From an uncultured Gammaproteobacteria bacterium (GTDB lineage Bacteria; Patescibacteriota; Microgenomatia; Levybacterales; UBA12049), in NCBI GenBank assembly GCA_964503265.1, contig CAZCYO010000002.1:66604-130603 (forward strand): a stretch of 64,000 nt of DNA, in the 5' to 3' direction. The notes under the pieces were generated by a model, which saw nothing but the letters and a program-made list of their open reading frames with translations, was not told the DNA's origin and searched no databases. Positions 9,304 to 21,917 of this stretch are shown here, one piece after another. The number at the start of each line of letters is the position of its first letter. Position 1 is the first letter of the stretch. The position numbers and the translations under genes were made by a program.

Positions 9304-9499
9304 TTGACAACGCCAAGCTAAAAATTTATAATTCTCTCAATGTTAAGAAATATCGTGCTCCTACCAGTCGTGATTAATAACCTCCTAATTGGGGGCTTTC
9401 ATACTGGGGAGAATTCGATATAAGGTAAATAAAATACAAAAGACCGATAAAGACCACCTCCCCCAAAGGGAGGTTTTTTTATGGCTAGAAAAGGAATAT
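9304..9499 (+). promoter_or_regulatory. Attenuator module A: promoter TTGACA-17-TATAAT, leaderless leader ORF, hairpin 1 (9381-9395), hairpin 2 CCUCCC-CCAAA-GGGAGG-U7 (9457-9480) carrying SD
   Basis: -35 9304-9309, -10 9327-9332, leader ATG 9340 (7 nt after -10); GGGAGG 3' arm is 8 nt before ATG 9481. Confidence 0.45.
9340..9423 (+). CDS. Leader peptide A, MLRNIVLLPVVINNLLIGGFHTGENSI (Ile/Val/Leu-rich)
   Basis: Leaderless ATG 7 nt after -10; branched-chain codons precede hairpin-1 5' arm. Confidence 0.35.
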   Translation: MLRNIVLLPVVINNLLIGGFHTGENSI

Positions 9500-10267
9500 A
9501 TGTTAGACAAATATCAACAAACAGGGTATGACGCAGAAGCATTTAGATCACCTAAACCAGGTATCTTTACCGCACGTCAAGAAATAACACCAATATTACG
9601 CCCTAATTTTAAAGATCGTCAGCAAGCTAAACCACTTGGAAGACAAAGAGATAATGAAAATGAACAGATGATTGAACAAACATTTCGTTCGGAAGGAGGG
9701 GTAAGAGTCATGGTTCCTATTAAAATTCTTTCAGGAACTCAAAATGGCGAAGCGTATTCTCAAAGTAGACGAAGATATGTAGAAAATCAAATGCGAACTA
9801 ACGGTGTGCAGTTTTTACAGGAAAATCCAATACAAGCATGTTTTATTCCATCTGATGGAGATCAGAACGGAAATCAATTTGGAAGATTAGCAATCTTAGA
9901 AGGACATCATAGGGCCAGATATGCACCAAAATACGGTATTTCTAAAGTTCCAACTGCAATATTTACACTCGAACAAACAGCAAGAGTATTAAACAAAATT
10001 GGTGAGACGTTTAATGGTGATCCGTTTACACCAGAGACAGCAAAAGACTGGCTTGATTTTGGAATTATTAAAGCTGAATATGACTTTACGACATATCCTG
10101 ATAACCTCGCTGCACAAAGACGTCTTACAGGGGTAGCCTCTATAAATGAACTTGTCGATAGCTATAAACTCACCCCCATAGAGCAACCTCATCACTTTCA
10201 CCCAGCAGCTAATTACACTGCTATTGGCACGCATGCATATTATGACTATGCAGCAGGAGATAAATAG
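9500..10267 (+). CDS. ParB/Srx-like nuclease-domain protein (GHHR motif); start re-placed after the terminator
   Basis: LAILEGHHRARYAPKYG matches ParB N-terminal/sulfiredoxin DGHHR motif; TTG-extended track ORF 9389 reads through the hairpin and is rejected; ATG 9500 has GAAAAGGAA RBS. Confidence 0.5.
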   Translation: MLDKYQQTGYDAEAFRSPKPGIFTARQEITPILRPNFKDRQQAKPLGRQRDNENEQMIEQTFRSEGGVRVMVPIKILSGTQNGEAYSQSRRRYVENQMRTNGVQFLQENPIQACFIPSDGDQNGNQFGRLAILEGHHRARYAPKYGISKVPTAIFTLEQTARVLNKIGETFNGDPFTPETAKDWLDFGIIKAEYDFTTYPDNLAAQRRLTGVASINELVDSYKLTPIEQPHHFHPAANYTAIGTHAYYDYAAGDK

Positions 10268-10273
10268 CTATTA

Positions 10274-10449
10274 TTGACAAATAAATTGAAGAATTCTATA
10301 CTCAGATTATGTTCATAACAAGCGCTAACAACTCAATTATTATTATTAACTCCCTCCGGGAGGTTCTTTTCGTGTAATAAGTAAACTTACACGAAAATGA
10401 ATAACCTCCCAAATTGGGAGGTTTTTTTATGGGAAAAATAATTACTTAA
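10274..10449 (+). promoter_or_regulatory. Attenuator module B: TTGACA-17-TATACT, leader ORF, hairpin 1 (10350-10363), hairpin 2 (10405-10428) with SD, mini-ORF MGKIIT
   Basis: -35 10274-10279, -10 10297-10302, leader ATG 10309; hairpin 2 CCUCCCA-AAU-UGGGAGG + U7 then ATG 10429. Confidence 0.5.
10309..10377 (+). CDS. Leader peptide B, MFITSANNSIIIINSLREVLFV (four consecutive AUU Ile codons at 10336-10347)
   Basis: Ile run ends 2 nt before hairpin-1 5' arm CUCCC. Confidence 0.4.
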   Translation: MFITSANNSIIIINSLREVLFV

Positions 10450-10643
10450 ATAAGAGGGGGTCGTAATGCTGATTTAAATCAGCATGAAGATCTCGAGGCT
10501 TAAATAAGCCGAAGATCCTGGAATCATAAAGATTCTAGGGCATACGAACGAATGAAATGAGGAAAGGGGCCACGAGTCTTACGACATCGCGGCATCATAT
10601 ACGATTTATAGGTTACTAACCTAGGAATAAGAGGTGAATATAT

Positions 10644-11033
10644 ATGACAAGAGAAGAAAATTTACAGTACAGAGCAGCACATGGGTATATCGGTGATAAT
10701 GAAATCGGTGTAAATGTTACGCCTACTACAAATAGATCACCATTCAGAGAAACAGGTAGATTACTCAGACTTGCAGAAGCAGCGGGCCGAGGACTAAATG
10801 GTTGGGAAGCGCAATACGAACAAACACGCGTATCAGATCCTATGCCAGAAATAAACGTACCAGAGGCAGACAATCATGTAGCTGAGGCACTTACAACTGT
10901 ATTTGGAGGAGAGCCTACTATGTATAAAGCTGATGCAGCTACCCTTGCAGTAAAAGACCAAGCATATCAAGCAACAGAACTTCCTCGAATTCGAGCAGCA
11001 CTAGCTGATCTTAGTAATGGAAATAGAGAATAA
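10644..11033 (+). CDS. Hypothetical protein
   Basis: 129 aa, strong RBS AAGAGGTGA; GC higher than flanks. Confidence 0.45.
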   Translation: MTREENLQYRAAHGYIGDNEIGVNVTPTTNRSPFRETGRLLRLAEAAGRGLNGWEAQYEQTRVSDPMPEINVPEADNHVAEALTTVFGGEPTMYKADAATLAVKDQAYQATELPRIRAALADLSNGNRE

Positions 11034-11124: not shown

Positions 11125-11853
11125 ATGGTAACTGTTGAGCAACGGACACATACTGAGAGAACATATGCACAGGCTCCTATGGCTGTTGCGGATGCAATGA
11201 TGGTCGGAACGACTGAATTAGTAACGAGTTATGCAGCTAGGCATCCAGTACAAACACCAGATGGAAGACCTCCTTCTCTCACTGACATAGCACAGACATT
11301 TCCTAAGAATACGTTTATGTACAACATGGAGGTTGTCATGAAAAATGCGACAGAAAAAATGTGCCAAACAGGTTCTGAGGTTGCAGTACGATTTCTTCTC
11401 GATAACCATTCCTCGCTTTTCGATAGGATTGGCCTCATACAGGCAGAAGGGAAACTTAATAATGGAAGTTGGAGACTGCATGAGCTATTTTTAGTTCGTG
11501 ATACGCGGAAGATATGGTACGCGGGAAGTCCGGCAAATTACGAACCAGAAGTAGCTGATAGGAAGTTAGCCTCTAGAAAGAACCAATCTGGTACTCTCGA
11601 ATTATTTCAACATCCCGATCTAGATATGCTTCTGAGTCACATTAAACAATCTGTAGGCGGACAATGGCCTGATCCATCATTTATTGAAGAAACCATTAAC
11701 ACAGGACCATTTCCAGGTAATCGGGAATGGTCATCGAATTATGCTATTCCTTTTAAACGATTAAAACGTGTTTACTCGTCTGATCAAGAAACCTATGACA
11801 AAGAAGAAAAAATCCTTCTTCAACCATATCGACGAGGAGGAAGAGTACTCTAA
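11125..11853 (+). CDS. Hypothetical protein
   Basis: 242 aa; no recognisable motif. Confidence 0.45.
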   Translation: MVTVEQRTHTERTYAQAPMAVADAMMVGTTELVTSYAARHPVQTPDGRPPSLTDIAQTFPKNTFMYNMEVVMKNATEKMCQTGSEVAVRFLLDNHSSLFDRIGLIQAEGKLNNGSWRLHELFLVRDTRKIWYAGSPANYEPEVADRKLASRKNQSGTLELFQHPDLDMLLSHIKQSVGGQWPDPSFIEETINTGPFPGNREWSSNYAIPFKRLKRVYSSDQETYDKEEKILLQPYRRGGRVL

Positions 11854-11893: not shown

Positions 11894-11970
11894 GGAGCTA
11901 TAGCTCAGTTGGCTAGAGCGTTTCATTGACATTGAAAAGGTCACTGGTTCGAGTCCAGTTAGCTCCACCA
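11894..11970 (+). tRNA. tRNA-Val (anticodon GAC), CCA encoded
   Basis: GGAGCTA acceptor, anticodon stem UUUCA/UGAAA loop UUGACAU, T-loop GGTTCGAGTCC, ...TAGCTCCACCA. Confidence 0.85.
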
Positions 11971-12042
11971 GGCACAATTCTGCGCCTGGCTTCGCCGGAT
12001 TTAGTCTTGTATATCCTCATTAAACAACCGTATACTAATCAT

Positions 12043-12651
12043 ATGATTACAGTAGCATCACCATCTTCATCTTTTACCCGTGAACAGGCAAATGAAATTC
12101 TCCATAAGTATTTAAAAAATATAAATCTTTTGAAACATTCATTTGCGGCTGAGGCGGCGATGAAGGCAATTTATGAGAAGTTCTATCTTAACGATATTAA
12201 TTACTCACTCGCCGAGAAAGAAAAGTGGGGGATAACTGGGCTTCTTCATGATGCAGATTATGAGTTATCTAAAAATAATCCTGAAGTTCATGGGTTACTG
12301 CTGTTTGAAAAAGAAGTAGGTGTCGTACCTGAGGACATTGCCCACGCAATTAAAGCACATAATTGGGAATACACGAAAATCATGCCAGAGTCACTCATGG
12401 ATTGGGCGATCGCATGTTCCGATCAACTAACGGGTTTAATCGTCGCTGCAACGCTAATTCATCCGGACAAGAAAATAAAGAATATTACCGCAGATTTCGT
12501 CCAGAAGCGTATGAATGAAAAAACATTTGCAAAAGGTGCTAAAAGAGAATCAATTCTACTATGTGAAGAAAAACTAGGTATCCCACTTCCAGAATTTATC
12601 GAAATAGTTTTACGTGCTATGCAAGGAATAAATACAGAGTTGGGGTTATAA
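12043..12651 (+). CDS. HD-domain phosphohydrolase
   Basis: H...HD motif (LLHDADYE); track ORF start (TTG 11926) lies inside the tRNA so ATG 12043 preferred; TTGTAT-18-TATACT upstream. Confidence 0.55.
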   Translation: MITVASPSSSFTREQANEILHKYLKNINLLKHSFAAEAAMKAIYEKFYLNDINYSLAEKEKWGITGLLHDADYELSKNNPEVHGLLLFEKEVGVVPEDIAHAIKAHNWEYTKIMPESLMDWAIACSDQLTGLIVAATLIHPDKKIKNITADFVQKRMNEKTFAKGAKRESILLCEEKLGIPLPEFIEIVLRAMQGINTELGL

Positions 12652-13244: not shown

Positions 13245-13248
13245 TTCT

Positions 13249-13381
13249 TGACGATTATAAATAACCATGATACAGTAAAAAAAATGAGTAACTTTTCTAA
13301 GATTATTACAACAACTACAACTCCCTAGCGGAGGTTGTTTTGTTATAGAGACAGACACCTCCCACATGGGAGGTTTTTTTT
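13249..13381 (+). promoter_or_regulatory. Attenuator module C (Thr leader) upstream of thrS operon: TTGACG-16-TACAGT, leader ORF, hairpin 1 (13321-13334), hairpin 2 (13358-13381)
   Basis: -35 13249-13254, -10 13271-13276, leader ATG 13284; hairpin 2 CCUCCCA-CAU-GGGAGG + U8 then ATG 13382. Confidence 0.55.
13284..13328 (+). CDS. Leader peptide C, MSNFSKIITTTTTP (Ile-Ile-Thr x5)
   Basis: Thr codons ACA ACA ACU ACA ACU at 13308-13322 abut hairpin-1 5' arm; stop UAG lies in hairpin-1 loop. Confidence 0.45.
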   Translation: MSNFSKIITTTTTP

Positions 13382-13654
13382 ATGATTGAATCACAAATAC
13401 AAACCCTCGAACAAGCAAGTAATGAGCCTAAAAATAGAGAAGGATTTGATCCAACCATACGAGGTCCTATTGCGACACTTTACTTACCACTAGAGAAAAA
13501 AGTAATAGCACATGCAATTCAATTTGAAAAATGGCAAAAAGAAACTATTGACTCAGGGAAGCCTCTCAATGGGATTACGAGAGAAAGCGAAGTAACAACT
13601 CAGCCAACCCGACAAGAAGAAATTATTCTCTTTGAAACTAGTGAAAGTAAATAA
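13382..13654 (+). CDS. Hypothetical 90-aa protein (possible divergent TGS-like N-terminal piece of ThrRS)
   Basis: SD in hairpin 2; C-terminal GKPLNGITRESEVTTQPTRQEEIILFET weakly resembles ThrRS TGS domain (..KLNGKEIDL.TPI.EDGTVEII.). Confidence 0.4.
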   Translation: MIESQIQTLEQASNEPKNREGFDPTIRGPIATLYLPLEKKVIAHAIQFEKWQKETIDSGKPLNGITRESEVTTQPTRQEEIILFETSESK

Positions 13655-13707: not shown

Positions 13708-15462
13708 ATGGAAAACGACAAAAGACAACATATGAGACATTCTGCAGCACATTTACTCGCTGCTGCGATGATGAAACTGTATCCTAAAACCAAACTTACT
13801 ATTGGTCCTGCGATTGAAAACGGGTTTTATTATGATTTCGATTTGGAAAATCCTATTAACGAGGAAGACTTTTCTAACATTGAAGCAACTATGAGAGAAC
13901 TACTTCCTTCATGGAAAGCATTTACTCACCGTGAAGTATCAGAGCATGATGCGAAAGAATTTTATAAGCATAATGAGTATAAGCTAGAACTGATCGATGA
14001 AATTATCGCTAAAGGCGAGAAGATTACATTTTATACGTCTGGTGACTTTGAAGATCTTTGTCGTGGCGGACATAGTGAGAATCCATCTAAAGATATTGGC
14101 GCTGTAAAACTTCTTTCGATTGCAGGAGCGTATTGGCGAGGGAGTGAGAAAAATAAAATGCTTACTCGTATCTATGGAACGGCATTTGCCACTCAAGAAG
14201 AACTTGACGAGTATTTAGGGATGTTAGAGGAAGCAAAAAAGCGTGATCATAAGAAGTTAGGTCGAGAACTTGATCTCTTCTTCTTTACAGAAACCTCTCC
14301 TGGCATGGCATACTGGCTTCCAAAAGGACTTACCGTGTATAACACACTTTATGGGTATGTACGAGAAATGTATAAAAAGTATGGATATCAAGAAGTCGCT
14401 ACCCCACAACTAAATAAAAAAGAACTATACGAAATATCTGGTCATTGGCAGCACTACCGTGGGGACATGTTTATTTCTCCGATGAGCTATATAACCGAAG
14501 ACTCGTCTGAACTTCTAGAGGGAAGTGAGGTGTTTGGTATTAAGCCGATGAATTGCCCAAATGCCATGACAATTTTCGATTTGAGAACGAGATCATACAC
14601 AGAATTACCACTTCGACTTGCCGAGACATCCATTCTCCATCGATTTGAACTATCCGGGACACTTAATGGTCTTTTCAGAATTCGACAATTCCGACAAGAT
14701 GACGCTCACGTATTTATGACAGTTACTCAAATAAAACAAGAGTTTGAAGCTCTCATGGACATGATTGCTGATATGTATGCTCCATTTGATTTATCATACA
14801 AGCTTCGTTTTGGAACCCGGCCAGAAAAATTTATGGGAGAAAGTAGCGATTGGGATGTGGCAGAACGAGAACTCAAACAAGTATTAGTTGATTCAGGCCA
14901 AGAATTCTTTGAGGCAGCAGGTGAAGGAGCTTTTTATGGTCCTAAAATTGATATCTTAATGCGTGATTCAATCGGGAGAGAATGGCAGACAGGAACGATT
15001 CAACTAGACTTCCAACAGCCAAAGAATTTTACATTGAAATATACCGATAATGACGGTTCTGAGAAAACTCCGGTTGTCCTTCATCGTGCTATTTATGGTT
15101 CGTTCGAAAGATTTCTTGGAATTCTCGTTGAACACTATGGAGGAAAATTCCCATTATGGCTTGCTCCTATACAATTAACGCTTCTTCCAATTGCTGACAG
15201 ACATGTCGAGTTCGCTGAAAAAATAGCCTCAGAATATAAAGAATTAGGAATTCGAGTCGAAGTTGACAGTACGTCAGAGCGCTTACAAGCTAAGATTAGG
15301 AACGCTACTTTACAAAAAGTGCCGTTTATGGGTATAATAGGGGACGCGGAAATTGCTGAGAACGTAATTTCGGTTCGTGTAAGAAGCGGCGAAGATCTCG
15401 GTAAAATCGAAACTTCCAAGTTTCTGACCCAACTTAAAGAAAACATTGATAAAAAAGTATAA
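13708..15462 (+). CDS. thrS: Threonyl-tRNA synthetase, lacking N-terminal TGS domain
   Basis: Starts at editing-domain HxxxH motif (HMRHSAAHLLAAAMM); class II aaRS core and anticodon-binding domain alignable along full length. Confidence 0.9.
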   Translation: MENDKRQHMRHSAAHLLAAAMMKLYPKTKLTIGPAIENGFYYDFDLENPINEEDFSNIEATMRELLPSWKAFTHREVSEHDAKEFYKHNEYKLELIDEIIAKGEKITFYTSGDFEDLCRGGHSENPSKDIGAVKLLSIAGAYWRGSEKNKMLTRIYGTAFATQEELDEYLGMLEEAKKRDHKKLGRELDLFFFTETSPGMAYWLPKGLTVYNTLYGYVREMYKKYGYQEVATPQLNKKELYEISGHWQHYRGDMFISPMSYITEDSSELLEGSEVFGIKPMNCPNAMTIFDLRTRSYTELPLRLAETSILHRFELSGTLNGLFRIRQFRQDDAHVFMTVTQIKQEFEALMDMIADMYAPFDLSYKLRFGTRPEKFMGESSDWDVAERELKQVLVDSGQEFFEAAGEGAFYGPKIDILMRDSIGREWQTGTIQLDFQQPKNFTLKYTDNDGSEKTPVVLHRAIYGSFERFLGILVEHYGGKFPLWLAPIQLTLLPIADRHVEFAEKIASEYKELGIRVEVDSTSERLQAKIRNATLQKVPFMGIIGDAEIAENVISVRVRSGEDLGKIETSKFLTQLKENIDKKV

Positions 15463-16009
15463 AACAAAACAAGATCAAAAGTTCTATAGAATAAACGAGC
15501 GTATCTTTGCCCAGACGCTTCGAGTGATTGATCTAGAAGGAAAACAAATCGGGGTTATCTCAAAAAGCGAAGCCATAAGCCTCGCCCGAGAGCAAGGGTT
15601 AGACGTAGTTGAAATTGCACCACTCGCTACACCGCCTGTTGCTAAGATTATCGATTATAATAAATTCCTTTACCAAGAAGAAAAGAAAAAAAGAGAAGAA
15701 AAGAGAAACGCAAAGGTATCCGAGACGAAGGAAGTTCGACTAGGTCCGTTTATGTCTGACAATGATTTAGCAACCATGGTCAAGCGAACACGAGATTTTC
15801 TAGAAGACGGAGACAAGGTTCGACTGGTCGTTAAATATAAAGGAAGACAAATAACCCATCCAGAATTTGGACAGGTTATAATGCAAAAAGTAATACTAGC
15901 AGTTGACGATATATCGAAAGTAGATCGTGAGCCTAAATTTGAAGGTAAACAACTGATTACATTACTCTCACCTGAAAGGAAGAAAAAGAATGCCGAAGAA
16001 AAAAATTAA
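15446..16009 (+). CDS. infC: Translation initiation factor IF-3 (non-ATG start: TTG 15446 or AUA 15449)
   Basis: YRINERI...LDVVEIAPLATPPVAKIIDYNKFLY typical IF3; overlaps thrS end. Confidence 0.85.
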   Translation: MIKKYKTKQDQKFYRINERIFAQTLRVIDLEGKQIGVISKSEAISLAREQGLDVVEIAPLATPPVAKIIDYNKFLYQEEKKKREEKRNAKVSETKEVRLGPFMSDNDLATMVKRTRDFLEDGDKVRLVVKYKGRQITHPEFGQVIMQKVILAVDDISKVDREPKFEGKQLITLLSPERKKKNAEEKN

Positions 16010-16187
16010 AAAATCAGTATCTAGACGCTTTAAAGTTACAAAAACTGGAAAAGTGATGTTTAGCCATCAATATGCTGGTCATCATAAAATCCATAAATCA
16101 AAAAAACGTCTTCGCAGACTGAAAGAACCAGCAGAAATGACTGGAAGATTCGCAAGAAACATTAAAAAATTATTAGGAGCACTATAA
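15990..16187 (+). CDS. rpmI: 50S ribosomal protein L35
   Basis: MPKKKIKKSVSRRFKVTKTGKV... 65 aa basic. Confidence 0.85.
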   Translation: MPKKKIKKSVSRRFKVTKTGKVMFSHQYAGHHKIHKSKKRLRRLKEPAEMTGRFARNIKKLLGAL

Positions 16188-16188
16188 T

Positions 16189-16539
16189 ATGGCAAGAGTA
16201 AAACGAGGTATTGTTTCAAGACGCAAACACAATAAACTACTTGGATTAACCAAGGGTTTTCGTGGTACAAAAAGCAGTCTTATTAAAACAGCACATGAAG
16301 CTGCACTTCACGCTGGAGCATATGCATTCCATGGACGAAAATTACGAAAACGAGATATTCGATCTCTATGGATTATTAGAATTGGTGAAGCAGTTAAAAA
16401 AGAAAGTCTTTCATACAGTAAATTTATTGATATGCTTAAAAAAGCAAATGTTGAACTTGATAGAAAGATTCTAAGTGATCTTATCGTAAACCATCCTGAA
16501 ACATTTAAAAAAGTTCTTGACAGTGTTAAAACTGCTTGA
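16189..16539 (+). CDS. rplT: 50S ribosomal protein L20
   Basis: MARVKRGIVSRRKHNKLL... 116 aa. Confidence 0.9.
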   Translation: MARVKRGIVSRRKHNKLLGLTKGFRGTKSSLIKTAHEAALHAGAYAFHGRKLRKRDIRSLWIIRIGEAVKKESLSYSKFIDMLKKANVELDRKILSDLIVNHPETFKKVLDSVKTA

Positions 16540-16708
16540 TAAGCTAATACCCATGATCACAACACGACAATCATATTTCTATTTTTACTTTACTTCCTTA
16601 ACCGGGAGGTCTTTTGCTGTCTAAGCAAGAAAAGTAAAACATAGACACAAAAGAGTACACCTCCCACACGGGAGGTTTTTTTATGGGAAAAATAAGAAAG
16701 GAATCACT
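16517..16708 (+). promoter_or_regulatory. Attenuator module D (Phe/Tyr leader, pheM-like): TTGACA-17-TAAGCT, leader ORF, hairpin 1 (16593-16609), hairpin 2 (16661-16682), mini-ORF MGKIRKESLCQE overlapping next start
   Basis: -35 16517-16522 overlaps rplT stop; leader ATG 16553; hairpin 2 CCUCCCA-CAC-GGGAGG + U7 then ATG 16683. Confidence 0.55.
16553..16624 (+). CDS. Leader peptide D, MITTRQSYFYFYFTSLTGRSFAV (Phe/Tyr run; compare E. coli PheM [15 protein letters not shown])
   Basis: Six consecutive Tyr/Phe codons 16574-16591 end 1 nt before hairpin-1 5' arm CUUCC. Confidence 0.45.
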   Translation: MITTRQSYFYFYFTSLTGRSFAV

Positions 16709-17662
16709 ATGCCAGGAATAGAAATGCGACATCATTCAGTTGAAATTATTGCAGGACCATGCTCAATGGATGAGAAAAACAGAGGAGAAATAGATACCAT
16801 TGCAGGGATTAGTTTACCTGACGGCCGTCCTGCCATTTATGGAACACGTGTGGTCGGATATAAATCACGAACAGAGTTAGATCCTTCAGGGAAAGGAATG
16901 GGGGTCGATTATCATGCAGTCGAACATGCGTTAGATACGAATGAACTAGGAGATGATCCACAAAGTGTAATGTGGGCACGGGAAATCGTAAAAGATACTG
17001 GCCTTCAAATTGCAACTGAAATTATGGTTCCTCATATTCAATTAGGATATTTTCAACGAGACCCGCTATTTCAAGGCAAACTATTACCATGGAATCCATC
17101 AGTTGATCAATTAGGACCTCATATGAGGCAAATGGGGAAATTTGCAATTAAAAATGAGTGGAGACTAGGTATAAAAAATGGAAAAGATTTAGGAGTAACC
17201 CCAAGTGTTGCAAATGATAAGAATGGCCGAGCACCTACCCCTCTTGAAAAAACATGGGGAGGACTTGCCACATGGGCACATGGATTAGATGAAAGTAATT
17301 TGGTTTTCATACAACGTGGAGTAAATATTCCTGAGAGAGGAGATCATAGAAACCTTCCAATACATGAAGCGACACGGCGAATTAAAGAAAGGTTTCCACA
17401 TGCTATTACATTATTTGATCCAAGTCATAGCTTTGGACCGAAGATGCGAGATCAAATTGTAGAAGGAAGTATAGATGCATTACGAATGACAGCAGGGAGT
17501 AGACCACTATATGATGGACTACTTATTGAAGCAGGGAGCTCAGATACTGATACAGACCAACATATTACCATTCAAGAACTTACCGAACTTGTTGATACCG
17601 TTCAACGGATTAGAGATGTTCGCACACGAGAACCACACAACTTCTATCAAAGAAGGGCGTAG
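16709..17662 (+). CDS. 3-deoxy-7-phosphoheptulonate (DAHP) synthase, class I-alpha (AroG-like)
   Basis: IIAGPCSMDE (GPCS), KSRT (KPRT analogue), KTWGGLATWAHG...FIQRGVN, LFDPSHS, GLLIEAG line up with E. coli AroG blocks. Confidence 0.6.
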   Translation: MPGIEMRHHSVEIIAGPCSMDEKNRGEIDTIAGISLPDGRPAIYGTRVVGYKSRTELDPSGKGMGVDYHAVEHALDTNELGDDPQSVMWAREIVKDTGLQIATEIMVPHIQLGYFQRDPLFQGKLLPWNPSVDQLGPHMRQMGKFAIKNEWRLGIKNGKDLGVTPSVANDKNGRAPTPLEKTWGGLATWAHGLDESNLVFIQRGVNIPERGDHRNLPIHEATRRIKERFPHAITLFDPSHSFGPKMRDQIVEGSIDALRMTAGSRPLYDGLLIEAGSSDTDTDQHITIQELTELVDTVQRIRDVRTREPHNFYQRRA

Positions 17663-17685
17663 TAGTACATAAAACATATTCAATT

Positions 17686-18645
17686 GTGTCGGTCACACAG
17701 TTGCAGTATAATGAGCTAGTTATGAAAAATGAAATGATTTTTATCGATGGCAAATTTGTTTTAGAAACTGATGCGAGAATATCGCTTAAAACACATGCAC
17801 TCCAGTATGGAACTGGCTGCTTTGAAGGAATTAGAGCGTACTATTCAGAAGAAGACGATGCGCTCTATGCATTTAGAGTAGAAGATCATTTTAGGAGATT
17901 TCTTAAATCATGTCATATACTGTTTATGAAACTTCCATATTCTGTTGAGGAATTAACGACATTTACTATCGAACTCTTAAAAAAGAACTATGACAAAACA
18001 GATATTTATATTAGGCCATTCGCTTTTAAATCTGAACCGACAGTCAGTAGTTTTAATCTTCAAACTCTTAAAACAAGTGTAGCGATCTATACAATCGCGA
18101 TGGGAAGATATCTCGATACAAAAGGTCTGAAAGCAAATATCTCTACCTGGAAAAGAGTCAATGACAATGCAATTCCACCTCGTGCAAAGATTACTGGCTC
18201 ATATATAAATACAGCACTTGCTAAAACAGAATCTCAGCTGAACGGATATGACGAAGCATTATTTTTAGATGAATCTGGCCATGTCGTCGAAGGAAGTGCA
18301 GAGAATATTTTCATTATTAAAGGAAATACTTTGATTACTCCATCTATCTCTGAAGATATTCTTCAGGGAATCACGAGGGAAACTATTATGATGTTAGCTC
18401 GTGATCATACTAATCTCACACTTGTCGAAAGAAGTATCGGGCGAACAGAACTATATCAAGCTGATGAAGTATTTTTAGTAGGAACGGGAGCCGAAGTAGC
18501 ACCAGTTATCGAAATTGATAAACGTGAAATTGGTACAGGTAAAACAGGACCACATACAGAAAAGATAAAAGATCTTTATTTTAAACTCGTTCATGGACAG
18601 TTACCAGAATATAAACAGTTATTTACCAAAATAACGTCTGACTAA
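17686..18645 (+). CDS. ilvE: Class IV PLP aminotransferase (branched-chain/aromatic amino-acid aminotransferase)
   Basis: EVFLVGTGAEVAPV and GSAENIFIIKGN motifs; probable start ATG 17722 (TTGTGT-17-TATAAT 9 nt upstream). Confidence 0.7.
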   Translation: MSVTQLQYNELVMKNEMIFIDGKFVLETDARISLKTHALQYGTGCFEGIRAYYSEEDDALYAFRVEDHFRRFLKSCHILFMKLPYSVEELTTFTIELLKKNYDKTDIYIRPFAFKSEPTVSSFNLQTLKTSVAIYTIAMGRYLDTKGLKANISTWKRVNDNAIPPRAKITGSYINTALAKTESQLNGYDEALFLDESGHVVEGSAENIFIIKGNTLITPSISEDILQGITRETIMMLARDHTNLTLVERSIGRTELYQADEVFLVGTGAEVAPVIEIDKREIGTGKTGPHTEKIKDLYFKLVHGQLPEYKQLFTKITSD

Positions 18646-18647
18646 AC

Positions 18648-18721
18648 GTCATTCTGGAGCGCAGCGATAGAATCTCACATATTTTGAGATCCTATCAAAG
18701 TCGTTGCTTTTCCAGGATGAC
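18648..18721. repeat. REP-like imperfect palindromic element, copy 1 (GTCATTCTGGAG...CCAGGATGAC)
   Basis: 74-nt near-palindrome; reverse complement of copy at 21846-21917 aligns over almost entire length. Confidence 0.5.
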
Positions 18722-18734
18722 AGAGTAATAAAAT

Positions 18735-19787
18735 ATGGAAGATAAACTTAATTCTATTAAAAACGCAGCGCTTCCTCTTGTTTTGGATGCGAAATCTGCC
18801 AAAGAACTTGAAGATATTAAACTACAATTTTTAGGCAGAAGTGGACTCTTAACCGTAGCTCTTAAAGAACTCTCAAGTGTTCCAGCAGAAAAAAGGCCAG
18901 AAATCGGACGAGTTGCCAATGAAGTAAAACAGACGATAGAAAATGCGATAGAGTCGGTTGCAGAATCATTTATTAAACAAAAAAGACAACATAAAACGAA
19001 ACTTGACGTAACCGAGCCTGGAATAAGACCTTCTCTTGGGAATCTTCATCTGGTAACACAGGCGATAGAAGAAATTACTGCTATTTTTAATTCAATTGGA
19101 TTTACACGAGTTCGATATCCAGAAGTAGAATGGGATTGGTATGCTTTTGAGGCTCTTAATTTTCCTGAAAACCATCCAGCACGTGATGACTGGGAAACGT
19201 TTTTTATTAAACAGTCACCTGATGCTAAAAAAGGACCTGTCATTTTAACTCCGCATACCTCAAGTGGACAAATTCGTGAAATGGAAAAAGGAATACTTCC
19301 AATTAAAATGCTTAACATCGCTAAATGTTATCGAAGACAATCAGATGTTTCTCACTCATCGATGTTTCATCAATTTGAAACATTATGTGTCGGTGAAAAT
19401 GTCTCTATTGCAGATCTTAAAGGAGCACTTGATTACTTTGCCAAATCGTATTTCGGAGAAAAAAGAAAAACGAGAATCAGGCCATATCATTTCCAATTCA
19501 CCGAACCGTCTTTTGAGGTAGATATCTCATGTGGAATTTGTAATGGTACTGCTAAACTTGAGAATGGTGAGCCATGCAAACTATGTAAATCAGGATGGCT
19601 GGAGTTAGGTGGAGCAGGAATGGTTCATCCAAATGTATTAAAATATTGTGGTATCGATTCAACCAAATATACAGGATTTGCATCAGGATTTGGTGTTGAG
19701 CGAGTACTGATGATGAAAGATGGAATAGAACTCGATGATTTACGGCTCATTTACAGCCCTAAACTTGAGTTTTTACAACAGTTCTAA
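18735..19787 (+). CDS. pheS: Phenylalanyl-tRNA synthetase alpha subunit
   Basis: Class II motifs in a pheS-length ORF directly followed by pheT. Confidence 0.9.
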   Translation: MEDKLNSIKNAALPLVLDAKSAKELEDIKLQFLGRSGLLTVALKELSSVPAEKRPEIGRVANEVKQTIENAIESVAESFIKQKRQHKTKLDVTEPGIRPSLGNLHLVTQAIEEITAIFNSIGFTRVRYPEVEWDWYAFEALNFPENHPARDDWETFFIKQSPDAKKGPVILTPHTSSGQIREMEKGILPIKMLNIAKCYRRQSDVSHSSMFHQFETLCVGENVSIADLKGALDYFAKSYFGEKRKTRIRPYHFQFTEPSFEVDISCGICNGTAKLENGEPCKLCKSGWLELGGAGMVHPNVLKYCGIDSTKYTGFASGFGVERVLMMKDGIELDDLRLIYSPKLEFLQQF

Positions 19788-19830
19788 TTTTAGCAAAAAG
19801 CATAGAGCAAAGGGCTAAGAGAAATACCCT

Positions 19831-21813
19831 ATGCACTATGCTCAAAGCTCTAAGCAATTTATGGATATAAAATTACTTGATAGTCACGTACGTGAATTTT
19901 TAAAAACAAATGCGACAGCGAAAGAAATCGCTGAGAAGCTAACATTAACCAGTCTTTCTGTCGAAAAGGTAGAGAAATGGAAAGAAGACTATATTTATCA
20001 TGCGGAAGTTATGACGAACAGACCGGATCTTGCATCAGTGGTCGGATTTGCGAGAGAGGCAAGTGCGGTCCTTCCACAACATGGAATTAAGGCTAACTTT
20101 GTACGTCCTGAGATTGAAAAAGCCACAACGGTAAAACAGCCAGTATCAATCACAATTAAAAGTAACGATAAACTTATTTATCGAATTTGTGCAGTTGTCA
20201 TGGAAGTCGAAATAGGGGAGTCGCCAGACTTTATAAAAAAACGTCTTGAAGCAGCAGATATAAGAAGCCTCAATAATGTAATCGACATTACAAATTACGT
20301 CATGCGAACGATTGGACATCCAGCACATGTTTTTGATTATGATAGACTCCCAAATCACACAGTCAACATTAGAGAATCTAAAAAAGGAGAACAGCTCACG
20401 ACGCTTGATCATAAGACGCATACGCTTCTGGGTGGAGATATCGTAGCTGACGATGGAAACGGGAATATTATCGATCTTATCGGCATTATGGGGCTTGAGA
20501 ATAGCGTTGTTACAAAAGAAACGAAACGAATTCTTTTCTTTATCGATAATAATGATGTAAACAAAATTAGAAATACGTCTATGAACCTAGGGATTCGTAC
20601 GGACGCAGCACAGTTAAATGAAAAAGAATTAGATCCAGAGCTAGCTATGGAAGCACTTCTTTATGGGATATCTCTATATAAAGAGCTAGCTCACGCAAAA
20701 GAGTTATCAGACATTATCGATATCTATCCGCATCCTAAAAAAATATCTTCAGTAACTGTCAGTGAAGAAAAAATTCAACAAGTCATCGGTGTACCTATTA
20801 CGCTTAAACAATCAAAGGAGATTCTTGAAAACCTCGGTTTTCAAGTTGAACTAAAAGGAGAATCGATCACTGTTACTCCATCATCTTTGCGAAGTAAAGA
20901 TATTCTTATTCCAGAAGATGTTATTGAAGAAATTGCTCGAATTTACGGATATCATTTGATTCCAAACAAATTACCATCATTTGTTGAACAACAGATTAAA
21001 AATCCCGAAAATAACGAATTCTTCTGGGAATCACACATTAAACACGCGATGAAGTATTGGGGATTTACTGAAGTTTTCACGTATTCAATGGTTAGTGAAA
21101 ATCTCTACGAAGGTCCATTAGAAGATGCAGTTACTATTTCAAATCCACTGAGTGAAGATATGATGTATTTACGTTGCACACTCGTTCCAAGCTTACTCCA
21201 AGTGCTTTCAGAAAATAAAACGACAGAGCAAATAAACATATTTGAAATAGCAAATGTGTACCATAAAAAAGAAAAGAGTTTACCACAAGAAATACTGACA
21301 TTTGCTGGAGTTATTAAAAAACCTAAAATCTCTTTCTTTGAAATAAAAGGCATCGTCGAACAACTCGCAAAAGATTTAGGGATCAGAGACATCTCGTTTA
21401 AAAATAATGAGGATGCAAATGAAGTCGAGATCTATAGTCAAAAAACACATATCGGAAATATCGAAATATTAGGTGACGATCTTATTAACTTCGAACTAAA
21501 TGCAAAACTACTAATCGATATGGCAACGACAAAGAAAGTATACACGCCACTTTCCAAATATCCCTCTGCTTCAGAAGATATAACAGTAATTTCAACTCCT
21601 GAAACATTGGCAGATGAGATCATCCATCTGATAAAAAGACAAAGTACTCTTATTAAAGAAATAACACTTTTTGATAAATACCAAGACGCACGAACTTTTA
21701 GAATTACCTATCAAAGTAATCAGAAAAATTTAACAACAGAAGATATAAAACCAATTCGCGAAAAAATAGTTTCATCACTCAAATCAGAACTCCACGCCAA
21801 GATAAAAGAATAG
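19831..21813 (+). CDS. pheT: Phenylalanyl-tRNA synthetase beta subunit (short form; start may be ATG 19861)
   Basis: ...AKEIAEKLTLTSLSVEKVE, B3/4 and B5 domain order; 660 aa. Confidence 0.85.
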   Translation: MHYAQSSKQFMDIKLLDSHVREFLKTNATAKEIAEKLTLTSLSVEKVEKWKEDYIYHAEVMTNRPDLASVVGFAREASAVLPQHGIKANFVRPEIEKATTVKQPVSITIKSNDKLIYRICAVVMEVEIGESPDFIKKRLEAADIRSLNNVIDITNYVMRTIGHPAHVFDYDRLPNHTVNIRESKKGEQLTTLDHKTHTLLGGDIVADDGNGNIIDLIGIMGLENSVVTKETKRILFFIDNNDVNKIRNTSMNLGIRTDAAQLNEKELDPELAMEALLYGISLYKELAHAKELSDIIDIYPHPKKISSVTVSEEKIQQVIGVPITLKQSKEILENLGFQVELKGESITVTPSSLRSKDILIPEDVIEEIARIYGYHLIPNKLPSFVEQQIKNPENNEFFWESHIKHAMKYWGFTEVFTYSMVSENLYEGPLEDAVTISNPLSEDMMYLRCTLVPSLLQVLSENKTTEQINIFEIANVYHKKEKSLPQEILTFAGVIKKPKISFFEIKGIVEQLAKDLGIRDISFKNNEDANEVEIYSQKTHIGNIEILGDDLINFELNAKLLIDMATTKKVYTPLSKYPSASEDITVISTPETLADEIIHLIKRQSTLIKEITLFDKYQDARTFRITYQSNQKNLTTEDIKPIREKIVSSLKSELHAKIKE

Positions 21814-21845
21814 TTAGCACGTCATCTCCCAGAGGGAGTCTGTGA

Positions 21846-21917
21846 CCTGGAGCAAAGCGATAGGATCTCATACAATGTGGGATTCTATCATGGTCGCTGC
21901 CATTCCAGAATGACAAG
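21846..21917. repeat. REP-like palindromic element, copy 2 (inverted relative to copy 1)
   Basis: CCTGGAGCAAAGCGATAGGATCTCA...GGGATTCTATCATGGTCGCTGCCATTCCAGAATGAC. Confidence 0.5.

Follow-up and report, generated by a model that had tools for sequence, protein, structure and literature searches.

Which genes does an aromatic leader peptide control when it lies between rplT and pheS-pheT, the place held by pheM in Escherichia coli? The question is raised by a locus in a 64-kb stretch of contig CAZCYO010000002.1, analyzed here at its full length of 64,000 nucleotides (the window). A short open reading frame (ORF) with consecutive Tyr and Phe codons follows rplT, and two genes separate it from pheS-pheT: one for a 317-amino acid protein, here called DahL, and ilvE, for an aminotransferase. 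The original prediction, made from the sequence alone, had read this arrangement as a pheM-like attenuator acting on an AroG-like 3-deoxy-D-arabino-heptulosonate 7-phosphate (DAHP) synthase, a transaminase and phenylalanyl-tRNA synthetase (PheRS) together. According to our in silico analysis, the leader very probably belongs to a classical ribosome-mediated attenuator that senses charged tRNA-Phe and tRNA-Tyr and that stems from a shikimate operon of the type found in the Candidate Phyla Radiation (CPR), fused here in front of pheST. Its elements are listed below, with the strand in brackets.

16517-16545 (+): sigma70-like leader promoter, with the -35 box TTGACA at 16517-16522, a 17-nt spacer and the -10 box TAAGCT at 16540-16545
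16553-16624 (+): leader ORF MITTRQSYFYFYFTSLTGRSFAV, 23 codons plus stop, from ATG 16553 to TAA 16622-16624
16574-16591 (+): regulatory codons Tyr-Phe-Tyr-Phe-Tyr-Phe, assigned from the sequence and the stalling model
16578-16591 (+): segment A, within the Tyr/Phe codons, with an alternative pairing to segment F
16592-16598 (+): segment B (ACUUCCU), the anti-antiterminator arm, predicted to pair with segment C when no ribosome covers it
16604-16610 (+): segment C (GGGAGGU), whose partner is either B or the terminator 5' arm, segment G; C:G is the antiterminator
16592-16610 (+): hairpin 1 (ACTTCCT/GGGAGGT, 7 bp), formed by B:C and beginning one base past the aromatic run
16612-16618 and 16624-16630 (+): small hairpin D:E of the minimum-free-energy fold
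16631-16645 (+): segment F, which pairs with the Phe/Tyr codons in the minimum-free-energy fold of 16540-16712
16659-16682 (+): intrinsic terminator, with the stem ACCUCCC/GGGAGGU at 16659-16676, the loop ACAC and a run of seven U (U7) at 16676-16682

The run of six Tyr/Phe codons described by the original prediction is there, hairpin 1 starts at the next base, and the terminator hairpin and U7 tract were confirmed in the sequence as well. By itself, a run of six aromatic codons is not unusual in AT-rich DNA. Runs of at least six codons occur four times in the six frames of the window (0.3 expected), the other three being antisense to genes, and 27% of simulated windows contain at least one. 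The case for the attenuator is made by context and conservation.

The features expected of a ribosome-mediated attenuator are found together at this locus: tandem regulatory codons in a short ORF (YFYFYF), an intrinsic terminator that separates the leader from the first structural gene, and mutually exclusive antiterminator and anti-antiterminator pairings. The region 16540-16712 folds at -41.5 kcal/mol, which beats all 200 shuffled sequences (z -4.1). In this minimum-free-energy fold, the B:C and D:E pairings and that of F make up a three-way junction in which segment C is sequestered, and an A-rich stretch lies between the small hairpin and the terminator. The antiterminator duplex C:G has an energy of -11.2 kcal/mol (z -4.8 against shuffles) and the B:C duplex one of -8.4 kcal/mol. 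The terminator motif CCTCCC-N4-GGGAGGTTTT is expected by chance 0.01 times per window. Between the attenuator terminator and the first gene, we found no second terminator-like site and no predicted promoter. The strong independent promoter that the original prediction named as a competing source of downstream transcription also finds no candidate, as 16624-16709 holds no promoter-like site.

A working model can be drawn from these pairings. Transcription would begin at the promoter overlapping the end of rplT, at or a few bases from the leader AUG. When Phe and Tyr are plentiful, the ribosome would pass YFYFYF and reach the stop codon, leaving B to pair with C; with B:C formed, the terminator at 16659-16676 and its U7 would form and transcription would end before the first gene. 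When Phe or Tyr is scarce, the ribosome would stall in the run and cover segments A and B, while C (GGGAGGU) would pair with the emerging terminator 5' arm (ACCUCCC) and block the terminator. RNA polymerase would then read into dahL, ilvE and, probably, pheS-pheT. The freed GGGAGG might in addition act as a Shine-Dalgarno (SD) sequence for the AUG after the U tract, adding a translational component. In the free RNA of the window the terminator is strongly favored (0.99), and it may also end the thrS-rplT transcript, rplT having no terminator of its own.

To place the leader in a wider set, we assembled 80 fetched genomic loci encoding relatives of the 317-amino acid protein, the contig of its closest relative (L081, 71% identity) and the window, 82 loci in all. 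A leader was scored when an ATG-started short ORF upstream of the operon had at least five aromatic residues in six. Such an F/Y(/W) leader was found in 65 of the 82 loci (63 fetched loci, L081 and the window), examples being MTQTSRFFYFYFASLTGRFAAV in L001, MVQKASHNSFYFYFYFTASGGVGSCA in L020 and MQKNLNKNFSFYFYFLMATPLG in L029, from Elusimicrobium posterum. Both Phe and Tyr are present in all 64 leaders analyzed, and Trp also in 20; the original prediction had made its reading depend on the conservation of Phe/Tyr codons in orthologous leaders, and these codons are conserved.

The promoter is conserved along with the codons. A sigma70-like promoter (at least 8/12) ends 6-11 nt, mostly 6-7 nt, before the leader ATG in 57/64 orthologous leaders, compared with 14% of random ATGs under the same criterion. 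In the window, the -10 box TAAGCT ends 7 nt upstream of the leader ATG; the promoter overlaps the last codons of rplT, whose stop codon (end 16539) falls inside the spacer. An SD-like motif precedes the leader ATG in a single one of the 64 leaders. Because the promoter ends so close to the ATG and no SD is seen, the leader mRNA is probably leaderless or nearly so.

Of the 64 leader regions, 57 have a single hairpin with a tail of 6-10 U's, placed after the leader and ahead of the first gene. In these 57 loci, the upstream segment pairing best with the terminator's 5' arm is found at +30 to +40 nt relative to the first aromatic codon, within the leader ORF in 53 of them, and the pairing has a median energy of -11.2 kcal/mol (median z -4.0 against shuffles). 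Segment C's alternative partner, the counterpart of B, occupies +19 to +29, immediately past the aromatic run. The stems fall into two classes, CCUCCC/GGGAGG (22 loci, the window included) and CCGCC/GGCGG (33 loci), and the leader segment changes accordingly: the antiterminator energy averages -11.3 kcal/mol for cognate pairs and -7.3 kcal/mol for cross-class pairs (p = 4e-23). One pair of the terminator stem shows a compensatory change, being C-G in 21 sequences and G-C in 13. RNAalifold, run on a MAFFT alignment of 37 leaders, recovered just 4 terminator pairs because the register of the B:C hairpin differs between the two classes. The switch was therefore analyzed per sequence, using duplex energies and constrained folding.

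Stalling was modeled on each transcript, folded as far as its terminator, by moving a 30-nt ribosome footprint along it codon by codon. The mean probability of the terminator stem, P(terminator), was 0.17-0.19 when the A site was occupied by aromatic codons 1-4, at least 0.97 from eight codons past the start of the run, and 0.91 for a ribosome at the stop codon. In this model, the codons are placed such that a stalled ribosome blocks the anti-antiterminator and a ribosome at the stop codon does not. For the window itself, P(terminator) was 0.99 in the early leader, 0.46-0.55 at Y8-F11 and 1.0 past the run.

The leader is framed by the following genes.

13708-16539 (+): thrS-infC-rpmI-rplT upstream operon, identified with Pfam, with no terminator of its own before the leader
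16709-17662 (+): dahL, encoding the 317-amino acid protein, a divergent type I-beta-like DAHP synthase by fold, motifs and operon position
17686-18645 (+): ilvE, encoding a class IV branched-chain-type aminotransferase (PF01063, 7e-49)
18648-18722 (+): long imperfect palindrome resembling repetitive extragenic palindromic (REP) elements, without a U tract (-34.5 kcal/mol, z -6.4)
18735-19787 (+): pheS (PF01409, PF02912)
19831-21813 (+): pheT (PF03483, PF17759, PF03484, PF03147)

The order thrS-infC-rpmI-rplT-leader-dahL-ilvE-pheS-pheT given by the original prediction was confirmed by Pfam and by the sequence, and the ORF at 17686 is, as it had proposed, a class IV aminotransferase. It passes two IlvE equivalog models of NCBIfam (NF005146, 352 bits for a cutoff of 279; TIGR01122, 322 bits for a cutoff of 246). 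In this operon context, its product is presumably a Phe/Tyr transaminase.

Assigning DahL required a profile search, a predicted structure and operon context because direct searches of Pfam and the PDB were empty. Pfam gave no match to the ORF, either at default thresholds or with E values up to 10 admitted, and a phmmer search of PDB sequences was equally negative. In NCBIfam, its C-terminal part alone reaches 27.4 bits for a cutoff of 335 (NF006421) and 20.9 bits for a cutoff of 268 (TIGR01361). The check that the original prediction had proposed, a search of the ORF at 16709 against PF00793, thus formally fails in Pfam and in NCBIfam as well. The motifs that it had pointed to are present, as IIAGPCS, FDPSHS and GLLIEAG. 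DahL has 334 homologues, nearly all from metagenome-assembled genomes of CPR/Patescibacteria (Roizman-, Woese-, Gottesman-, Levy- and Dojkabacteria), with a few from Elusimicrobia and other reduced genomes, and a precomputed match to PF00793 exists for many homologues with 45-54% identity. The taxonomic position given to the window follows from the labels of such homologous genomes only. A profile built from 30 members and run against the PDB matched type I-beta DAHP synthases only, through GPCS, xRG and DPSHS.

The AlphaFold2 model of DahL has a mean pLDDT of 92. Its top 15 PDB matches in Foldseek are all type I-beta DAHP synthases (E ~1e-12), with KDO8P synthases next. Ranked first are the enzymes of P. 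furiosus, A. pernix, T. maritima, Listeria and Geobacillus, at 16-19% identity and a TM-score of 0.63 (query-normalized) or 0.77 (target-normalized). Like the type I-beta enzymes (1zco, 1vs1, T. maritima, 3nvt), DahL has a TIM-barrel fold and carries GPCS, K-x-R-T, xRG and DPSHS. Cys18, Lys52, Arg54, His240, Glu274 and Asp281 are invariant in the family; Cys18 and His240 match the metal ligands of DAHP synthases; Glu274 and Asp281 presumably do so as well, and Lys52 and Arg54 presumably match the KxRT motif. DahL differs from the type I-beta enzymes in about 55 extra residues, the lack of a regulatory domain and the low identity of 16-19%. Fold and catalytic motifs are those of type I-beta and, together with operon position, identify DahL as a predicted divergent DAHP synthase of this type. 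Of "AroG-like DAHP synthase", the second half is upheld by profile, fold and operon, and the first half was rejected: all sequence and profile matches are of type I-beta, and the 50 best fold matches in the PDB include no AroG-type (type I-alpha) structure.

Across the 82 loci, rplT lies upstream of the leader in only about 16 and pheST downstream in only 6, whereas dahL always follows it, in 24 loci behind a gene for a PfkB-family kinase. In the relatives, dahL is followed by aroB, aroA-aroK, aroE, aroD, aroC and the genes for prephenate dehydratase, prephenate dehydrogenase and an aminotransferase. Further aro/phe/tyr genes are co-oriented with dahL in 51/80 loci, and aroB, aroA-aroK, aroE, aroD and aroC all accompany it in 13/80. 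In these shikimate clusters dahL occupies the step-1 position, and by gene order its product is the predicted filler of the step-1 slot otherwise missing from these operons. Because dahL and aro genes follow the leader whatever lies upstream, we regard it, on comparative grounds, as an aromatic-pathway leader that is part of the shikimate operon rather than of pheST. The pheM-like reading of the original prediction is borne out only in part, and the leader is not a counterpart of pheM. The likeness to the E. coli order rplT-pheM-pheST is best taken as the result of an operon fusion within a single sub-lineage, that of the window, where the shikimate operon would have been joined to the front of pheST and the other aro genes lost or relocated.

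In those 24 loci (L002, L003, L004, L007, L013 and others), the operon begins with the PfkB-family sugar kinase, immediately ahead of dahL; the window lacks this kinase. It might supply an aldose phosphate substrate.

Does the attenuator also reach pheST? In the six loci with pheST downstream, its terminator is the sole terminator-like site from the leader to the end of pheT, and the intergenic gaps are short. In L081, pheS starts 23 nt past dahL with no ilvE between them; in the window, the ilvE-pheS spacer measures 89 nt. We consider co-transcription of pheST with the leader operon somewhat favored. The proposal of a single attenuator for DAHP synthase, transaminase and PheRS is supported in its Phe/Tyr-sensing layout, in which leader and terminator are conserved, and for PheRS it may apply to the 6 of 82 loci that have this link.

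Several observations weigh against our reading. The transcription start, termination at U7 and read-through are all inferred. DahL remains under the Pfam and NCBIfam thresholds. The other shikimate genes are absent from the window, as judged by tblastn at E up to 1e-4 with relatives' aroB, aroA/K, aroE, aroD, aroC, pheA, tyrA, PfkB and aminotransferase as queries. Stalling in the window lowers the equilibrium P(terminator) merely to about 0.5; because this effect is modest, the switch there must presumably rely on co-transcriptional kinetics, with C pairing to the terminator 5' arm while the 3' arm has yet to be transcribed. For the pheST part, a hairpin of -34.5 kcal/mol lies between ilvE and pheS, pheS has no obvious SD, and weak internal promoter-like sites occur (e.g., at 17486), no commoner than in shuffled sequence. 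The hairpin is the palindrome at 18648-18722, which could be a processing or stability element.

A related copy of this palindrome is found at 21843-21915, after pheT. L023 and L058 have similar 'GTCATTCTGAGCG...' elements past the attenuator.

The window holds three further attenuators with the same order of parts (promoter, ATG, codon run, GGGAGG switch, CCTCCC-N4-5-GGGAGG terminator, U7-8).

13285-13381: Thr leader attenuator MSNFSKIITTTTTP, leader ORF 13285-13329, terminator 13357-13381, before a 90-amino acid ORF and thrS
10310-10428: Ile leader attenuator MFITSANNSIIIINSLREVLFV, leader ORF 10310-10378, terminator 10405-10428
9341-9480: Ile/Val/Leu-rich leader MLRNIVLLPVVINNLLIGGFHTGENSI, ORF 9341-9424, terminator 9457-9480, with a consensus promoter

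Within 13248-13381, the Thr leader has its own promoter TTGACG/TACAGT and a terminator nearly identical to that of the F/Y leader; Thr leaders also precede thrS in L001 (MMNAIRTTTTTTS) and L058 (MSQGITITTTTIL). From this arrangement, thrS would be under leader-peptide attenuation and not under T-box control or autoregulation. The 90-amino acid ORF after the Thr attenuator (13382-13654) has no family and no homologue in the fetched loci. The Ile element, at 10275-10640, has a promoter TTGACA/TATACT and a mini-ORF, MGKIIT, after its terminator. The mini-ORF is followed by about 215 nt with several hairpins and no Rfam match, and then by two ORFs, 10644-11033 and 11125-11853, for which Pfam, NCBIfam and PDB sequences gave no match. 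In the stretch 9304-10267, the Ile/Val/Leu leader precedes a 255-amino acid ORF of unknown family (9500-10267). Ile/Val/Leu leaders precede ilvE in L031, L036 and L038; in the window, ilvE is instead part of the F/Y operon. Leader-peptide attenuation looks like a general strategy in the lineage, one that extends to aminoacyl-tRNA synthetase genes, and the control of pheST by the F/Y leader gains credibility from this reach.

A broader possibility, which we regard as less likely than not, goes beyond this locus. CPR bacteria may use a modular family of leaderless attenuators, sharing promoter, AUG, codon run, GGGAGG switch, U7 tract and start codon, over a complete shikimate operon with an as yet unrecognized DAHP synthase family at its head, aminoacyl-tRNA synthetases and unknown genes. 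It would cover thrS (Thr leader), pheST (F/Y leader) and the unknown genes behind the Ile and Ile/Val/Leu leaders at 10310 and 9341. The operon of the window would then be a reduced one, a shikimate operon cut to its first and last enzymes and fused to pheST, which mainly tunes PheRS together with a remnant or repurposed DAHP synthase.

Control could instead be mainly translational, with the hairpin at 16659-16676 sequestering the SD GGGAGG, stalling freeing it, and termination at U7 being secondary. The terminator 3' arm is indeed a perfect SD, 7 nt before the ATG of a mini-ORF:

16683-16721 (+): mini-ORF MGKIRKESLCQE, 12 codons, starting right after the U tract and overlapping ATG 16709

Within the CCUCCC class, a start codon after the U tract, 4-9 nt past GGGAGG, is found in 17/22 loci; it is the first gene's own start in 7 (e.g., L010 and L015) and that of a short ORF ending near the gene start in 8. 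The conservation of the mini-ORF is confounded by the U tract itself, which with a following G makes TTG trivially. The 33 CCGCC loci keep the switch although their 3' arm, GGCGGG, is not SD-like; the tract of 6-10 U's, a signature of termination, is kept in 57/57; and in the window dahL is served by a separate AAGGA, 6 nt upstream of ATG 16709. We consider predominantly translational control unlikely, while a translational layer through the freed GGGAGG, added to attenuation, is plausible. The mini-ORF overlapping the dahL start lies where the original prediction had placed it, and the translational coupling it suggested is plausible and not clearly conserved (17/22, with the TTG confound).

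The leader might also be a homologue or analogue of pheM whose ancestral target was pheST, with dahL and ilvE as later insertions. As in E. coli pheM-pheST, an aromatic leader follows rplT, and pheS-pheT lies downstream in the same orientation with no terminator in between; this layout recurs in L001, L003, L023, L058 and L081. The window differs from E. coli in the two intervening biosynthetic genes, in the association of the leader with dahL across loci and in the sensing of Tyr. However, pheST is missing downstream in 59 of the 65 leader-bearing loci, rplT is missing upstream in about 49, and the leader always stands before dahL or PfkB-dahL and then aro genes. Tyr codons, together with the Trp codons of 20 leaders, suit an enzyme of the common pathway better than PheRS. 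A pheM origin is very unlikely on this evidence.

The remaining alternatives are highly improbable. That the hairpin and U7 are a plain terminator of thrS-infC-rpmI-rplT, next to a fortuitous Tyr/Phe ORF in AT-rich DNA, would suit the lack of another terminator after rplT and the aromatic runs of the window, which are not rare, but this is strongly disfavored by the comparative data: the same ORF, promoter, antiterminator and terminator occur in loci with other upstream genes, the stems co-vary, and the minimum of P(terminator) coincides with the aromatic codons. That an RNA sensing tRNA, a metabolite or a protein (T-box, riboswitch or protein-mediated attenuator) replaces ribosome sensing would be in keeping with the use of T-boxes by CPR relatives (L015 9066-9427), but Rfam gives no T-box or riboswitch match here, only the sub-threshold Phe_leader described below, and what is conserved is a reading frame, from an in-frame ATG through the aromatic run to a stop codon, in which synonymous substitutions and exchanges among F, Y and W occur.

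The T-box leader at 9066-9427 of L015 scores 98 bits, above its gathering score. T-boxes and leader-peptide attenuators coexist in this group.

How, then, does the proposed Phe/Tyr attenuator relate to known systems? At gathering thresholds, Rfam detects only tRNAs in the window. The Phe_leader model (RF01859) aligns over its full length (1-125) with 16563-16684, scoring 38.6 bits (E = 8.6e-4, 7.5 kb searched), below its gathering score of 55, which nothing in the window and none of 12 related loci reaches. Most of this score reflects shared architecture and not Phe codons, because the Ile attenuator (10347-10430) also scores 32.4 bits with the same model. In E. coli pheL-pheA, too, the aromatic (Phe) codons are immediately followed by the hairpin ACCUUCCC/GGGAGG, and both the three-way junction and the CCUCCC...GGGAGG terminator, with its U tract, recur there. 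The window differs by its alternating Tyr/Phe codons, an SD-less and probably leaderless leader, and a DAHP synthase operon in the place of pheA. From the sequence, homology with the pheL family cannot be shown; the attenuator would work like pheL and pheM, yet it is not a member of RF01859.

By analogy, the nearest functional precedent is the leader of aroF, a DAHP synthase gene of Corynebacterium glutamicum, which acts as a Phe-Tyr-Phe leader-peptide attenuator (PMC4046766). There too, the first shikimate step is placed under aromatic-tRNA charging. The phylum and the class of DAHP synthase are different, the sequence is unrelated, the run is shorter and, unlike in the window, there is no link to an aminoacyl-tRNA synthetase. 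A short ORF at the 5' end of the transcript without SD is also known from the poly-Cys attenuator upstream ORFs of mycobacteria, which sense Cys instead and whose leaderless start was shown experimentally (bioRxiv 10.1101/834739), whereas that of the window is deduced from promoter spacing only.

For a long time, leader-peptide systems were believed to exist only in Proteobacteria and Actinobacteria, and examples from Firmicutes came later (PMC2965389). CPR genomes are generally described as lacking complete amino acid pathways, in an account that mentions leader peptides only with bacteriocins (PMC7143001). For CPR bacteria, the literature we searched contained no report of attenuation or leader peptides, nor of this family of DAHP synthases. 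Mechanistically the attenuator is of the textbook kind; its interest lies in the lineage and in the size and co-variation of its family, which adds about 65 co-varying cases of ribosome-mediated attenuation to a radiation that had none in that literature. Many of these reduced genomes would keep a regulated, complete shikimate pathway. Many "hypothetical proteins" would gain a function as one large family of divergent DAHP synthases, whose member in this genome escapes Pfam. Operon fusion would be a route by which an aminoacyl-tRNA synthetase comes under leader-peptide control, converging on E. coli pheM-pheST.

Two Elusimicrobia loci, L029 and L059, have the same F/Y leader, dahL and aro operon. 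L029 comes from an isolate with a complete chromosome, Elusimicrobium posterum strain Dip510 (NZ_CP152277.1, 936268-949209). The presence of the F/Y leader and dahL in Elusimicrobia suggests either transfer or deep ancestry, and with the element of strain Dip510 the mechanism may be testable in culture.

Elsewhere in the window, ORF 11926-12651 has no family match, and its listed TTG start is overlapped by a tRNA gene at 11894-11967. The true start of this ORF is probably further downstream.

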